A stretch of DNA of 64,000 nt, from IMG/VR virus record IMGVR_UViG_2908567220_000002, positions 1-64,000 of that record; one strand, 5' to 3'. The position numbers were made by a program, and so were the translations under genes. The notes below the pieces were generated by a model. The model was not told the origin of the DNA, did not search any database, and was given only the letters and a program-made list of their open reading frames with translations. Shown one piece after another: positions 30,042-38,331 of the stretch; position 1 is the first letter of the stretch, and each line of letters starts with the position of its first letter. This DNA is from a virus. Its lineage: Duplodnaviria; Heunggongvirae; Uroviricota; Caudoviricetes.

Positions 30042-30116
<75 letters not shown>

Positions 30117-30119
30117 CAT

Positions 30120-30195
<76 letters not shown>

Positions 30196-30362
30196 CATTG
30201 GTTCCTCAGGTGTGGATGAGATGCCCGGATACATAAATTACCCTCCCTTGGAACCGACGAAGAATAATAATGAATTCCGCTCCTGTTTCAATACAAACAA
30301 TGTCAGGTATTTAAAACATAATTATACAATATTATAAAAATTAAAAAGTTCGCAAAAAAAAG

Positions 30363-31559: not shown

Positions 31560-31757
31560 TCACTGAGGAAGGCGTCTGTAACAACCGAACTGATAATCTG
31601 CCAGACCCGCCATAACAAGCTGAGTCAGTATTAACTGGCAGCGTTCGCGTGAAAGGTAAGTATTCTGCGCAATTTCCCCGACGGTCGCCGGTTCGGTGAC
31701 GCTTAATTCATTAAACACCACTCTGGCGGTTTCGGTCATATCCTGCTGTTTTAGCAT
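31560..31757 (-). CDS. Small hypothetical protein, possibly winged-helix DNA binding
   Basis: ORF 31560-31880; probable start MLKQQDMTETARV. Confidence 0.35.
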   Translation of the reverse strand: MLKQQDMTETARVVFNELSVTEPATVGEIAQNTYLSRERCQLILTQLVMAGLADYQFGCYRRLPQ

Positions 31758-31880: not shown

Positions 31881-31910
31881 AAAAAAACCCGCATAAAGCG
31901 GGTTCTTTCA
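31881..31910 (-). terminator. Rho-independent (bidirectional-looking) terminator ending the ATPase/Toprim cassette
   Basis: AAAAAAACCCGC-ATAAA-GCGGGTTCTTTC; on the - strand the stem is followed by T7. Confidence 0.6.
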
Positions 31911-32039
31911 GGTGTCCATGTCTGCTATTCGCCTCGCGGTACAGCTTTGCGAAGCGTAGCTGGATTGAAACAGTTTATTGGCAAAAAATCAAGACATTTT
32001 ACAAACAAAAACAATCAACTGAACAAAAAAGAAAATAAA

Positions 32040-32573
32040 TCATCTTGTTAACCTGAAATGTTTAGAAAAAGATGACTTAAAACTTGCAACAGGCTCCAAT
32101 ACAGCATGTAAATCTCTTGTAAACCACTTAGTTTCCTGCATGCCCATTTTCAGTAACTTTGAAAGTTGATTGTTACAAGCAATAAAATCTCTCTTGAAAT
32201 CATTTATACCCGATGTTTTTTTTGCACAGAACCCAGCAATTAGTTTTTTTACAGGAATTCCGCAACACCAGGCCAACTCCTCCTCAAAATTTCTTTTCTG
32301 CTGCAAAAGATAAACTTTATGCCCTCTGTTTTTAAGGAACTTTACATTTTCAATGAATCTTGCAGATTGCTCCACTTCATCACTATCAAAGACAATTAGT
32401 ATATCACTTCCCTTCGGAATAGTAATCGCATAATTTCTTATGCTCTCTTGCCAAAAGTTTCTTTTTACAATTGATTTGGCATCAATAACTCTCTGTTGTT
32501 TCATCTTCTGAAAAAGAGAGTTTTCTGTTTCACCTTCGACAAAAATTATTCTTATTTTAGACAACCCCGCCAT
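32040..32573 (-). CDS. Small Toprim-like protein (RloB/AbiLii-like or DUF4276/DUF4435-like), predicted nuclease partner of the upstream ATPase
   Basis: 177 aa; N-terminal IIFVEGETE and downstream IVFDSDE resemble the Toprim Glu and DxD motifs; start overlaps the ATPase stop (TGATG); AT-rich. Confidence 0.6.
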   Translation of the reverse strand: MAGLSKIRIIFVEGETENSLFQKMKQQRVIDAKSIVKRNFWQESIRNYAITIPKGSDILIVFDSDEVEQSARFIENVKFLKNRGHKVYLLQQKRNFEEELAWCCGIPVKKLIAGFCAKKTSGINDFKRDFIACNNQLSKLLKMGMQETKWFTRDLHAVLEPVASFKSSFSKHFRLTR

Positions 32574-33763
32574 CAGAGTAGCTCCGATACTAATGATGTG
32601 TCAGGTAAGACACCAAAGACATCTCTCTCAACAGCGTTTCGCATGCTACGGTCATTTTTTTTAACAACTGAATTTGCTTCAACAAACTCCGAATAGTCTT
32701 TCGTTTTTTTAATAAAAATGAACGAGTGAACAGGCAGATCCAACTCAAAAATATCCATGTTATGTGTTGTATAGAAAAACTGAGTATTTTCTTTCAAATT
32801 AGATATAATCAGCGCCACAATCATACGCTCTAACTCTGAATGTGTATAAGCCAATTTCTCGTCAAGAAAATAAGTCATTGATGGTATTAGAGATTGCTTA
32901 CCTAGTCTTTCACAATCAGAGATAATAGCGCTTATAAAATGCGCTACCGTCACTGCCTCGTATGTTCCTCGAGAAAGACGGTCTGAGTTAATTATTTCAC
33001 CTTTACTGGTAACGACAAGAGAATCAGAGTTTTTAAATTTAATCAGATAAACCGCAGATGATTTATTTTCATCCCCGTCACTTTCAGACTCCAGCATCTC
33101 GGTAACTCCTATAATACTTGAATCGAAAGTGCGAATTATCCTTTCAAGAATATTTTTATTCATTCCTGAAATTGCAGTGGTACTCTCTTTAGTTTCAGAC
33201 AACAAATAGTACCATCCACCAAAAAACTTAAGTTGCTTGAAAAACTCCAATACAACTGGTTCGCTATCAGTAGCTAGTTCCTGAAAAAAATATTCTGTAT
33301 CTCCTGGGGCCCTTCCAGAAAAGAGTTGATTCAGTTTTTCTGTGGTTTTATAGCAAGAATCATTTAATGCTATTTGAACAAAACCATATTTAATTTCTTT
33401 GATTATGTGCGCTCCGCCTTCACTGGTAGCAAAGCGTACATACAAACGATGATGAAAATGTTCCTCCGTAGCAAAGTCCACTTCAAACGAAGCATCATTA
33501 TTTTTATTATTCACTCGCAGATTACTCCGCAACTCTTTGGTTCTTAGAAACACCTGAATTCCACAAAGAATTCGCCCTAGTGACGTCTTACCTGAAGCAT
33601 TCCCCCCCGTTATGATACAGACTTTTTTATAGTAAAATTTAGGCCGTCCAGCCAAAAACTCCCCATCAAGAGGCATGTTTACAGGTTTCCTTGGATAGGA
33701 CAGGTTAAGCTCTGCATCCTCAAAAGCGTACAAATTGATAAATCTCAATCGTGTAAATATCAT
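32573..33763 (-). CDS. ABC-type/AAA ATPase (AAA_15/AAA_21-like; RloA/AbiLi/AriA/OLD-like)
   Basis: ORF 32573-33853; probable start MIFTRLRFINLYAFEDAELNL at 33763 with GGAAG RBS; Walker A GGNASGKTS, Walker B-like TYFLDE, H-loop-like YTTHN. Confidence 0.7.
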   Translation of the reverse strand: MIFTRLRFINLYAFEDAELNLSYPRKPVNMPLDGEFLAGRPKFYYKKVCIITGGNASGKTSLGRILCGIQVFLRTKELRSNLRVNNKNNDASFEVDFATEEHFHHRLYVRFATSEGGAHIIKEIKYGFVQIALNDSCYKTTEKLNQLFSGRAPGDTEYFFQELATDSEPVVLEFFKQLKFFGGWYYLLSETKESTTAISGMNKNILERIIRTFDSSIIGVTEMLESESDGDENKSSAVYLIKFKNSDSLVVTSKGEIINSDRLSRGTYEAVTVAHFISAIISDCERLGKQSLIPSMTYFLDEKLAYTHSELERMIVALIISNLKENTQFFYTTHNMDIFELDLPVHSFIFIKKTKDYSEFVEANSVVKKNDRSMRNAVERDVFGVLPDTSLVSELL

Positions 33764-33852
33764 TCTTATCTTCCATATGTTGGAACTTAACGTAAGTATT
33801 GTCCAGACCTTGATGAACGTCAACAAGATTGATAGCTGATGCACTTCTATCA

Positions 33853-34410
33853 TCAGTTATCAGAAAAGCACCGAAGTGCCACGCACATTGGAAGGAAAAG
33901 CATGGTTTCAGCCATCGCCAACCAAACATCAATGCGATTTCTACAAGTTTTCAGGCTCCAGTCAGGGTGATTCTTTTTTAACTGTTCTGCCATTTTCAGC
34001 TTGCTCATTCCCAGCCCTTCATATCTTTGTCGGAGGATACAAATCAATCCCGGATGCTCTGCCAACACTTCACTAATTACCCGATCGATACATAACGCCT
34101 CGGCATCAGTACAATAAGCCAGCCCGCTCTTTTGCTTGCTGTTGATCATCTCACGCAAAAACGCTTCCAGCTCAGTTTTATCAATCCCTGATTTTTTTAT
34201 TCTGCGCAGAGCTTCATTGATCGCAGTTTTTGTAAGTGTTTTGGATGCCAGCAACTGATTGAACATATTTCCTGGTTTGCCACCACCTATGTACGACCAA
34301 CGCCCCCACATCCGTAATTTCCCCTGGATCCAGACGGCTTCCAGCGTTTTTAGACGTAAATGCTCGCCGCTTTTGCCTGTAATTTCCGGGTATATCATAT
34401 TTACGATCAC
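33853..34410 (-). CDS. Putative late-gene antiterminator Q-like protein (phage 21/82-type); identification tentative
   Basis: 185 aa directly downstream of rusA (canonical Q position); RMWGRW motif resembles the WGxW motif recalled for 21-type Q. Confidence 0.45.
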   Translation of the reverse strand: MIVNMIYPEITGKSGEHLRLKTLEAVWIQGKLRMWGRWSYIGGGKPGNMFNQLLASKTLTKTAINEALRRIKKSGIDKTELEAFLREMINSKQKSGLAYCTDAEALCIDRVISEVLAEHPGLICILRQRYEGLGMSKLKMAEQLKKNHPDWSLKTCRNRIDVWLAMAETMLFLPMCVALRCFSDN

Positions 34411-36270: not shown

Positions 36271-36426
36271 TTACTCCTCAGGTTCGTAAGCTGTGAAGAC
36301 AGCGACCTCCGTCTGGCCGGTTCGGATTCGTACCTCGCAGAGGTCTTTCCTCGTTACCAGTGCCGTCATTATGACGGTTAAACAGATGACGATCAGGGCG
36401 ATTAACATCGCCTTTTGCTGCTTCAT
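36271..36426 (-). CDS. hokD: Hok-family type I toxin (HokD/RelF-like)
   Basis: MKQQKAMLIALIVICLTVIMTALVTRKDLCEVRIRTGQTEVAVFTAYEPEE, near-identical to HokD as recalled; the longer in-frame ORF to 36483 may be the mok-like frame. Confidence 0.8.
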   Translation of the reverse strand: MKQQKAMLIALIVICLTVIMTALVTRKDLCEVRIRTGQTEVAVFTAYEPEE

Positions 36427-36836
36427 AGCCTGCTTCTCCTTGCCTTTCGGCACGTAAGAGGCTAACCTAGATTTGCCGTTCATAGATTGAGCCTCAGATT
36501 AATGTATAAGCGTCTTGCAGGACGCATAATGTTAACTGGGGCTTTTCTCTATCTGCCTTTGGTGTTCATGCTTGAGGCAGATAGCCTCAAGCACCCGCAG
36601 CAATTTTACTTAACTCCCCTTTTCCCACAAATCGTTTTTATCCCTACTGGTAATGTTCTCCCGATGTGGGATTCCCACATTGGAACGAATTCAATCAGTT
36701 AAAGACTCATCAGAATCTCACCTTTCTAAGTGCCCACAGGTGAGGCATTGCAATAAAAATAGCAAACGTGTATAAAAGGAGGTAATGCATGTTTTTCCAG
36801 TCTTATCAATCCATTACTGAGAGTTAAGGGGGCGCC

Positions 36837-37631
36837 GTGGATCGGTGCGGTAATTATTTACTTAAAGATGGTCGCAGTTTAGGACAAGGGAGTTTTGGCG
36901 AAGTATTTAAGGTTGATGTCTATAACTTAACCCAGACCCACATGACCACATATGCTCGCAAATACTTTTCACCTTGCCCGGACTTTGACAAGACCGCTAT
37001 AAAAGAGTTGACTGATTTAAGACAGCGTTTTTTAGTTGAGATCAAAACACAATGCACTCTCAATAGAATAAACTATGATTCAATAGCGCCAATAGTTTTA
37101 TTTAATACAAATGGTGATAAACCTTATTTTGTTATGGAATTGGCAGAGTGTAACTTATATGAAGCCATCCGCAATGGTATGAATTACGCGGAGAGGAAGT
37201 CTGCTGTTACTCAGATTTTAAAAGGAATTATCACCATACATGAAAACAACTATATACATCGTGATTTAAAACCAGGAAACATACTTTATTATGCCGATGG
37301 AAAGTATAAAATATCTGATTTTGGTCTAGTAAAAGACAGAGATACCTTACGGGCCGAAATCAAAACAAAATTTAAGCCTAATCACATGGGCACAGATGGA
37401 TATCGAGCGCCCGAAATACATGATAGCGGTCTTTTTTCTTTTCAAAGCGACATATTTGCAGCAGGTAAAATTATCACTGATATATATCCCACAGAAAGAA
37501 GTGAAAAATTAAAAAGATTGATTGCAAAATGTTGCGCACATTGGCCTGAAGAACGATATCAAAGCACACGGGAGTTACTGGAAGATTTTTTAAAAGTGAC
37601 GGGGGAGGTAAATCATGAAGAACATAATTGA
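36837..37631 (+). CDS. Hanks-type (eukaryotic-like) serine/threonine protein kinase, kinase domain only
   Basis: GTG start with RBS TAAGGGGG; glycine loop GQGSFGEV, lysine YARK, catalytic loop HRDLKPGN, DFG, APE; AT-rich versus flanks. Confidence 0.85.
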   Translation: MDRCGNYLLKDGRSLGQGSFGEVFKVDVYNLTQTHMTTYARKYFSPCPDFDKTAIKELTDLRQRFLVEIKTQCTLNRINYDSIAPIVLFNTNGDKPYFVMELAECNLYEAIRNGMNYAERKSAVTQILKGIITIHENNYIHRDLKPGNILYYADGKYKISDFGLVKDRDTLRAEIKTKFKPNHMGTDGYRAPEIHDSGLFSFQSDIFAAGKIITDIYPTERSEKLKRLIAKCCAHWPEERYQSTRELLEDFLKVTGEVNHEEHN

Positions 37632-38331
37632 AATGGCATGTTTTAGCCTAAAACAACCCCAAAAAAAAGAAAATGAAGACTTTTATTTACCGCCATCTTT
37701 TGATAGCGATTTTAACATTGTCTTTGCAGTAGCTGATGGGGTTGGTTCCTCTGAACATTCAATGCTTGCATCTCATGCAGCCATTCGTGGCATTAGACAC
37801 ACGCTAGGCACTTCCTTTTTCTCAATTGAAAGTGCATTTCATTCAGCTAAAAAAGAAATTGACAATTTAGATATTAGCACTGCCACAACCTTAACAATTG
37901 TTCAGATCAAAAAAAATGAAGTGTTAATTGGTCATTCCGGTGATTGCCGAGTATACTTCAATAAAAACAACAAACTAAATCAGTTAACCACTGATCAAAC
38001 GAGATATCAAGAACTCCTTGATTCTGGTGAACATAAATTACGTAATTTAAGAAATCATAAAGAACGGCTATCTTCAGTCCTAACGAATGCTTTATCAAAT
38101 ACAACGGATTTGAATTTTGAGTTAATGTCTTTTCCGATTAGCCAGCTAATTTATAATGGCTATCTTCAACTCTATGCAATGACTGATGGTGCCTATAAGC
38201 ATTGGGATGTCAGACCAAGGTTTTCTGAGAAGACAATGCTCTCACCAACAGCTTTTGCGAGTAGTTTAAGAAAAAGGATTGAGAAAAACATAATGGATGA
38301 TTACACTTTTATAGGCGTAAAAGTAACCTAA
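37615..38331 (+). CDS. PP2C-family serine/threonine phosphatase
   Basis: ATG with RBS GGGGGAGG; overlaps the kinase gene by 17 nt; motifs FAVADGVGS, GHSGDCR, TDG. Confidence 0.75.
   Translation: MKNIIEMACFSLKQPQKKENEDFYLPPSFDSDFNIVFAVADGVGSSEHSMLASHAAIRGIRHTLGTSFFSIESAFHSAKKEIDNLDISTATTLTIVQIKKNEVLIGHSGDCRVYFNKNNKLNQLTTDQTRYQELLDSGEHKLRNLRNHKERLSSVLTNALSNTTDLNFELMSFPISQLIYNGYLQLYAMTDGAYKHWDVRPRFSEKTMLSPTAFASSLRKRIEKNIMDDYTFIGVKVT

Follow-up and report, generated by a model that had tools for sequence, protein, structure and literature searches.

Which function do two AT-rich genes serve that stand as a unit between a Q-like antiterminator gene and the late genes of a Rac/lambdoid prophage? 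The question is raised by positions 32,040 to 33,763 of the virus record IMGVR_UViG_2908567220_000002 (Caudoviricetes), of which positions 1 to 64,000 were analysed (hereafter the window). The first gene of this cassette encodes an ATP-binding cassette (ABC) ATPase of 396 amino acids, and the second one a protein of 177 amino acids with the features of a Toprim nuclease. We consider it fairly likely that the cassette is a self-contained "split OLD" abortive-infection module of the AbiL kind, in which the ATPase would act as a sensor and restrain the Toprim nuclease, which would probably cut RNA.

The coupled gene pair and its ATPase

Both open reading frames (ORFs) were recovered on the minus strand where an earlier note on this DNA had read them. 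The TGATG overlap between them was found as well, and so were the five motifs which that note had picked out (Walker A, Walker B-like, H-loop-like, IIFVEGETE and IVFDSDE), the key residues of which are conserved among homologues. The gene pair consists of the following parts:

32573..33763, minus strand: ABC ATPase gene, AbiLi-like and of the Rad50/SMC type, for the proposed sensor/regulator (396 amino acids plus stop; ATG at 33763-33761, TGA at 32575-32573)
32571..32575, minus strand: TGATG junction, read directly in the sequence, in which the ATPase stop and the start of the small gene share one base
32040..32573, minus strand: small stand-alone Toprim-like gene, for the proposed nuclease effector (177 amino acids plus stop; ATG at 32573-32571, stop at 32040)

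A GGAG is located 8 nt upstream of the ATG of the small gene. The GC content of the pair is 0.33-0.39 (positions 32000-33750) compared with 0.47-0.55 in both flanks, in line with the AT-richness remarked on earlier. For each of the two proteins hundreds of homologues exist across Proteobacteria and Firmicutes.

A longer ATPase of 426 amino acids could be read from an ATG at 33853. This start was rejected and the shorter one preferred, because the homologues uniformly begin with MIFTRL and RefSeq/PGAP annotates 396 amino acids. The upstream in-frame ATG (33853-33851) overlaps the stop codon of the Q-like gene (TGA, 33855-33853), which creates a second TGATG (33851-33855, minus strand), and it would add 30 hydrophobic residues (MIEVHQLSILLTFIKVWTILTLSSNIWKIR) to the ATPase, an extension that the homologues do not have. 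Judged by this comparison, the upstream ATG is probably not used; read-through coupling of the ATPase from the Q-like gene is conceivable.

The conservation of the ATPase was assessed in 60 homologues with identities down to 35%. Four motifs stand out:

33581..33607, minus strand: Walker A (P-loop) GGNASGKTS, residues 53-61, with G58, K59 and T60 invariant
32963..32977, minus strand: ABC signature-like LSRGT, residues 263-267, with R262, S264, G266 and T267 invariant; aligns with the equivalent stretch of P2 Old
32858..32875, minus strand: Walker B TYFLDE, residues 297-302, with D301 and E302 invariant; aligns with IFIDE of P2 Old
32762..32764, minus strand: H-loop histidine H334 in YTTHN (residues 331-335), invariant; aligns with STHS of P2 Old

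The invariance of these residues in the Walker A, signature, Walker B and H-loop motifs suggests that the protein should bind and hydrolyse ATP.

Among the PADLOC profiles, AbiLi (PDLC02335) is the top match of the ATPase with 86.4 bits (E value 4.3e-25, profile positions 50-288 of 326), and this profile is matched by all 60 homologues (best E 6e-32). The next matches are mad3 (E 2e-11) and then AriA (E 1e-7), so that the proposed AbiL-like, OLD-family character of the protein stands. All Pfam matches are below threshold (AAA_15 with 28.8 bits at a cut-off of 32.1, AAA_21 with 19.2 bits, and SMC_N). The NCBIfam search gave sub-threshold P-loop matches to recF and ccmA only, and sequence and profile searches against the PDB returned no significant match for the ATPase. 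In PHROGs, both cassette proteins belong to families of unknown function (phrog_5836 and phrog_10204).

The structural model of the ATPase is closer to the heads of Rad50/SMC proteins and to defence ATPases (PtuA, the retron ATPases, AriA, OLD and GajA) than to transporters, while RecF and RecN are matched less well than PtuA, the retron ATPases and AriA. The protein is thus Rad50/SMC-like with all four motifs intact, as expected of an OLD-like ABC ATPase. An ABC transporter was also considered and rejected: the combination of an ABC_tran match above threshold and an adjacent permease was not found. According to the earlier note, clustering of the ATPase with ABC proteins of transport or repair would speak against a defence role. 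For repair this comparison does not discriminate, because a Rad50/SMC-like structure is common to the entire AAA_15/OLD group.

About 200 residues of the ATPase separate Walker A from the signature, and they are mostly beta-structured with short helices in the AlphaFold2 model. Since this predicted insertion has no long helices, it should contain no coiled coil. In hhalign, the ATPase aligns to residues 258-344 of P2 Old (E 0.0013).

The small Toprim-like protein

There is good support for placing the second protein in the Toprim fold, even if none of the tests settles the matter alone. Its conservation was analysed in 92 relatives with 22-49% identity. The motifs IIFVEGETE (residues 9-17) and IVFDSDE (residues 60-66) contain the first two of four candidate active-site elements:

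32523..32537, minus strand: Toprim glutamate motif E13-G14-E15-T16-E17 (E-x3-E), with E13 and G14 invariant and E17 at least 90% conserved
32379..32387, minus strand: Toprim DxD motif D63-S64-D65, with D65 invariant and D63 at least 90% conserved
32277..32291, minus strand: N95-F-E97-E-E99, proposed second-metal site, with N95, E97 and E99 at least 90% conserved; its equivalence to T506-x-E508 is taken from motif order only
32193..32195, minus strand: K127, candidate catalytic lysine (inferred counterpart of K562 of Bp OLD), at least 90% conserved

Altogether, E17, N39, D63, N76, Q92, N95, E97, E99, F126, K127, L140 and W151 are conserved in at least 90% of the relatives. The catalytic set of the class 2 OLD protein Bp OLD comprises E400, E404, D455-x-D457, T506-x-E508 and K562 (PMC6755086). 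The conserved residues of the small protein run in the order of this set, and the spacing of its E-x3-E equals that of E400/E404 (PMC6755086).

In alignments the E-x3-E corresponds to VEGKTE of P2 Old and to VEGKND of PDB 1t6t, and the DxD to DCD and DLD of the same two proteins. Residues 8-153 of the small protein are colinear with residues 394-543 of P2 Old in hhalign (E 0.0034, probability 9%). When the family profile was compared with PDB sequences, 1t6t, the RNase M5-like Toprim protein of A. aeolicus, came out best (E 0.1), with both motifs aligned. The weak matches of the small protein are mostly to Toprim families (RloB, OLD-like_TOPRIM and AbiLii), which agrees with the Toprim partner that had been suspected; another weak match is Ribosomal_L4 at E 0.1. 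The AbiLii profile PDLC02337 is matched at E<=0.01 by 52 of the 92 relatives (best E 5.9e-7), and OLD-like_TOPRIM at the same level by only nine of them.

The structure was predicted with high confidence (predicted local distance difference test, pLDDT, 90.6) as a beta-alpha-beta-alpha core with a helical tail. Toprim, OLD and GajA structures are among the alpha/beta folds that the model matches, and it aligns over the greatest length with GajA and the C-terminal region of OLD. A Foldseek search of this model against the PDB was uninformative, with nothing at E<=0.001, the top entries being SIS and flavodoxin-like domains with a TM-score of at most 0.37. In a phmmer search of the PDB, AI-designed TIM barrels (E 1e-4) were alone below E 0.001; we set them aside as artefacts that arise from the composition or the repeats of idealised beta-alpha units. 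The small protein thus combines a predicted Toprim fold with a conserved glutamate and DxD.

An exhaustive profile search delineated a uniform, stand-alone family of approximately 160-190 amino acids with 615 clusters at E<=0.001 and 379 at E<=1e-10. The partner family has at least 615 clusters at 50% identity, and Pfam has no family for this effector. Curated profiles (Pfam, NCBIfam and the PHROGs annotation) leave it as "hypothetical", and PDB searches found no solved structure for the cassette subfamily.

Related loci, proposed mechanism and its alternatives

The two genes travel together. In all ten other loci that were inspected the ATPase gene is followed by the small gene, and the intergenic spacing is -8 to +4 nt in the eight other loci measured. 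Across the loci the identity of the two proteins drops roughly in parallel, from 58 to 28% for the ATPase and from 53 to 29% for its partner, which is consistent with co-evolution of the pair. Most of these loci are prophage cargo sites:

Klebsiella P2-like prophages: pair between portal and gpA, where P2 carries old and tin
E. coli Rac-like prophage: pair adjoins the integrase
Citrobacter-type prophages: carry the pair
Acinetobacter phage Ab105-3phi: pair adjoins the integrase
Clostridiales contig: pair has a DNA methylase and Vsr as neighbours
Pelistega, a Bathymodiolus symbiont and Acinetobacter: pair at chromosomal sites

Some chromosomal copies (L005, L006 and L018) have no obvious mobile element. 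Among complete E. coli genomes, the cassette is present in 7 of 5426 with 99.6% identity, while the flanking backbone was matched in about 1900. In a megablast search of the phage collection the backbone flank alone was matched and the cassette was found in none of the phages; tblastn revealed distant copies in Acinetobacter phage Ab105-3phi, in one faecal phage and in one Acinetobacter plasmid.

Among the named systems, the pair is most similar to AbiL, inside the wider group of OLD-like ABC ATPases with a Toprim partner. AbiL of L. lactis (AbiLi and AbiLii) has been known since 1999. It shares with the cassette the two-gene operon, the gene order, in which a Toprim/OLD-like protein follows an ABC ATPase, and the location on mobile elements. 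Accordingly, the window contains two adjacent, co-oriented genes for an ABC ATPase and then a Toprim/RloB-like protein, and the ATPase matches the AbiLi profile. The carriers differ, a lactococcal plasmid in one case and an enterobacterial prophage in the other, and the comparison was made through profiles; a tblastn search of PLSDB with the ATPase found no Lactococcus plasmid at E<=0.001. On the sequence evidence the AbiLii and RloB profiles describe proteins to which the small protein is no more than a distant sister.

PARIS, the other candidate raised initially, was rejected. It is defined by a DUF4435 effector of at least 27 bits together with an ATPase reaching 32 bits for AAA_15 or 27 bits for AAA_21 (PMC9122126). 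The small protein has no DUF4435 (PF14491) match at E<=1, and the 28.8 and 19.2 bits of the ATPase fall below the required values. In addition, AriA has about 53-55 kDa and AriB 35 kDa (PMC11464382, PMC10802454), compared with 396 and 177 amino acids here, and the insertion of the cassette ATPase is mostly beta-rich and without a coiled coil in the AlphaFold2 model. The profiles that had been proposed as a check of the family thus gave a mixed answer: AAA_15, AAA_21 and RloB remain sub-threshold and DUF4435 gives no match, whereas AbiLi in PADLOC is clear. It was apt that the subfamily had been left open, since the pair is not PARIS and the partner stays below the Pfam threshold for RloB.

Further systems resemble the cassette in part. 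P2 Old is one polypeptide of 586 amino acids; the split proteins here come close to this size with 573 in total, but the identity is only approximately 16%. Unlike Gabija, the cassette has no UvrD-like partner, and unlike retrons it has no reverse transcriptase. The MADS system resembles it in that mad3 is the second-best PADLOC family of the ATPase and is matched by 55 of 60 relatives, mad4 is weakly matched by one of the partner's relatives, and Burman et al. list MADS3-4 as a pair of ABC ATPase and Toprim. However, the cassette is a stand-alone, two-gene unit and not part of a multi-gene, methylation-associated system; the DNA methyltransferase nearby belongs to the cassette-less backbone. 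In WonAB, from the WASA-1 prophage of V. cholerae, and in PD-T4-4, a prophage operon likewise joins a short ABC ATPase of the OLD type to a small nuclease that is toxic; neither gene is dispensable in these systems, and translation is blocked by the effector (PMC12137116). The effector folds differ, being PD-(D/E)xK in WonB, HNH in PD-T4-4 and Toprim in the cassette; no PD-T4-4 profile of PADLOC matches the ATPase at E<=1. The cassette thus adds to a known kind of defence system that pairs an ABC ATPase with a Toprim protein. It is a credible candidate that will not surprise the specialist.

Several precedents led us to the model of an ATPase-restrained Toprim RNase. In PARIS, a hexamer of AriA sequesters the Toprim protein AriB, and a phage trigger together with ATP releases AriB, whereupon tRNA is cleaved (PMC11464382, PMC12409363). 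P2 OLD was reported to be a tRNase (bioRxiv 10.64898/2026.07.10.737580), and the AAA ATPases of the NetFlax AAA/Toprim pairs were validated as neutralising Toprim_OLD toxins (PMC10440598). WonAB, described above, is the fourth precedent. By analogy, the two genes of the cassette would be co-translated, and the Rad50/SMC-like ATPase would oligomerise and hold the 177-amino-acid Toprim nuclease inactive. A cue from an infecting phage may be sensed through the variable insertion between Walker A and the signature (approximately residues 76-255), and this cue, together with ATP binding or hydrolysis, would free or activate the nuclease. The putative two-metal site (E13/E17, D63/D65, N95/E97 and K127) would then cut nucleic acid, the likeliest target being tRNA or another translation-related RNA. 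The infected cell would be killed or arrested and the infection aborted, and thereby the prophage might guard its host against rival phages. The sequence analysis itself shows the gene structure, the conservation of the motifs, the family relationships, the strict pairing and the location at cargo sites of mobile elements; the assembly of a complex, the sensing of a phage, the substrate and the abortion of the infection are all modelled on these related systems.

A number of observations weigh against this model. In hhalign, the comparison with the one P2 Old sequence yielded low probabilities (9% and 19%). The small protein reaches the threshold of no curated profile (16.2 bits for RloB at a required 31.5, and 14.7 bits for OLD-like_TOPRIM, PF20469, at a required 23.2), and its own AbiLii match (PDLC02337; 17 bits, E 0.0018) covers 23 of the 170 profile positions. 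The choice of RNA rather than DNA as substrate is pure analogy. In a recent review the mechanism of AbiL is still listed as open (PMC13064643), we found no paper in which the cassette subfamily was tested, and a phenotype is known for none of its members. Regarding expression in the lysogen, promoter-like sites are no commoner than in shuffled sequences (6 compared with 7.0 expected). Last, a place directly behind the Q-like gene is also one that could be expected of a gene for the phage's own lytic growth.

Three alternatives were considered, given here in descending order of plausibility. According to the first one, architecture and defence role are the same but the Toprim effector degrades DNA, of the phage or of the host, as has been reported for GajA and the class 1/2 OLD nucleases in vitro. 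This is possible, if clearly less probable than an RNA target. It would fit the E-x3-E, DxD, NxE and K set, which follows the site order of Bp OLD, an enzyme that nicks and degrades DNA in vitro (PMC6755086), and also the fact that GajA and the C-terminal region of OLD give the longest structural alignments. However, the closest split systems with known targets hit translation, namely the tRNase AriB (PMC11464382, PMC12409363) and the NetFlax Toprim_OLD toxins (PMC10440598); the reported tRNase activity of P2 OLD (bioRxiv 10.64898/2026.07.10.737580) and the RNase M5-like Toprim protein as best PDB sequence match of the family profile point in the same direction.

The second alternative is a toxin-antitoxin or addiction module, in which the Toprim toxin and the ATPase antitoxin would stabilise the prophage or another mobile element instead of sensing phages. 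We regard it as unlikely. Pairs of AAA ATPase and Toprim_OLD do act as toxin and antitoxin in neutralisation assays (PMC10440598), the tight coupling and the travel with mobile elements would suit such a role, and a hok/sok module is present in the same prophage. But in PARIS single-gene deletions are non-toxic and both genes are needed for defence (PMC9122126), the three chromosomal copies mentioned above have no obvious mobile element, and the conserved, catalytically complete ATPase suggests active sensing over simple neutralisation. Moreover, toxin-antitoxin behaviour and defence are not mutually exclusive.

The third alternative, that the pair serves DNA metabolism in the lytic cycle of the prophage itself, as a RecF/RecR-like recombination mediator, which would likewise join an ABC ATPase to a Toprim protein, or as a nuclease that processes host or replicating DNA, expressed with the delayed-early nin-Q operon, is hardly credible and the RecF/RecR reading was rejected: the cassette is rare (7 of 5426 genomes) while its backbone is common without it and therefore it is cargo that can be spared, it lies about 15 points lower in GC content than the backbone, the pair also occurs at unrelated cargo sites (P2 old/tin and integrase-proximal) and outside prophages, the RecF and RecN matches are the weaker ones, and in a nuclease active site one would expect acidic residues and a lysine such as the extra ones seen here.

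Returning to the split OLD, AbiL-like module, a bolder version of this model can be formulated, which we consider rather doubtful. In this version the pair would form a minimal class of its own within split OLD-like immunity, with a coiled-coil-less ATPase, a beta-rich sensor insertion, a Toprim RNase of about half the size of AriB, and a trigger unlike those of PARIS and P2 OLD; it could be expressed from a Q-proximal late-promoter leader, ahead of the backbone terminator, and so be on in lysogens.

The cassette is of interest since with it E. coli has a compact AbiL-like pair of its own, which is thus directly testable with coliphage panels and genetics and useful as a model for AbiL in this species. 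Such tests could show whether the logic of PARIS and P2 OLD, in which a sensor sequesters a Toprim RNase, reaches the AbiL branch, and which phage cue is sensed.

Prophage setting and neighbouring genes

The cassette was indeed found between the Q-like gene and the lysis/late genes, as had been proposed from the sequence. The gene order is DUF968, RusA, the DUF1133 gene, the cassette, a small ORF, the DNA methyltransferase, two tRNA genes and the holin. The following features delimit the cassette:

32001..33954, no strand assigned: inserted or replaced module, 1954 bp compared with 170 bp in the cassette-less prophage L008
33853..34410, minus strand: Q-like antiterminator-family gene (DUF1133), the upstream neighbour (DUF1133 E 8e-99; Phage_antitermQ 31.5 bits at a cut-off of 26)
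31881..31904, minus strand: intrinsic terminator hairpin AACCCGC-TTTAT-GCGGGTT followed by a T-run (direct fold -20.6 kcal/mol, z = -5.5)

When the window was compared with L008 by blastn, homology stopped at 32000 and restarted at 33955. The cassette is thus an AT-rich replacement in a Rac/lambdoid prophage and was probably acquired horizontally. The last approximately 33 codons of the Q-like gene (33856-33954, minus strand) lie in the segment that does not align to L008, and homology from 33955 on is at 88%; it would therefore seem that a different 3' end of the Q-like gene came in along with the cassette. If it acts in defence as proposed, the interval from the Q-like gene to the backbone terminator in Rac-type lambdoid prophages can hold defence cargo.

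The pair had been thought to end in its own strong terminator (31881-31910). The hairpin is real: it was missed by the terminator scan and confirmed by direct folding (31904-31881). However, the DNA is 96-97% identical in prophages without the cassette, and therefore the terminator is that of the prophage and not the cassette's own. It possibly corresponds to tR'.

A site of the form TTGACG-17-AATACT (33823-33795) upstream of the ATPase start was not called a promoter, as there is no enrichment over shuffled sequences. At 31960-32000 (minus strand), weak -35/-10-like hexamers (TTGATT-17-TTCAAT) were seen by eye and have no support from the scan; L008 has TTGTAT-17-TTCAAT at 4130-4200. They are located in the conserved backbone, approximately 55-95 nt upstream of the terminator, and may represent the late promoter (PR') followed by a short leader, in which case the cassette would lie between the Q-like gene and PR'.

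Right after the terminator, a conserved hypothetical ORF of 65 amino acids (31560-31757, minus strand; WP_000917767) belongs to the common backbone and not to the cassette; it has no Pfam or PADLOC match. The Rfam scan detected no RNA family in or beside the cassette. The DNA methyltransferase gene is followed downstream by those for tRNA-Gly(tcc) and tRNA-Thr(tgt) at 30043-30196 (minus strand), which cassette-less backbones have as well, and an otherwise near-identical prophage of E. coli JNE21-009 has tRNA-Ile/Arg/Arg at this spot. That these prophage tRNAs are related to a tRNA-cutting effector is speculation.

On the other side of the Q-like gene there is a second AT-rich cargo pair (36837-38331, plus strand, opposite to the cassette; GC content approximately 0.34-0.37). 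It consists of a Ser/Thr kinase of 264 amino acids (Pfam Pkinase 1.4e-31; PADLOC mad6 1e-37, PD-T4-6 1.2e-32, Stk2 2.6e-25) and an overlapping PP2C-type phosphatase of 238 amino acids (PP2C_2 1.4e-10), and is probably another defence or exclusion module of the prophage. Just upstream of it, Rfam identified the sok antitoxin RNA (36421-36596, minus strand; 110 bits, E 5.5e-25), which marks the prophage's own type I toxin-antitoxin locus, hok/sok (hokD-type).

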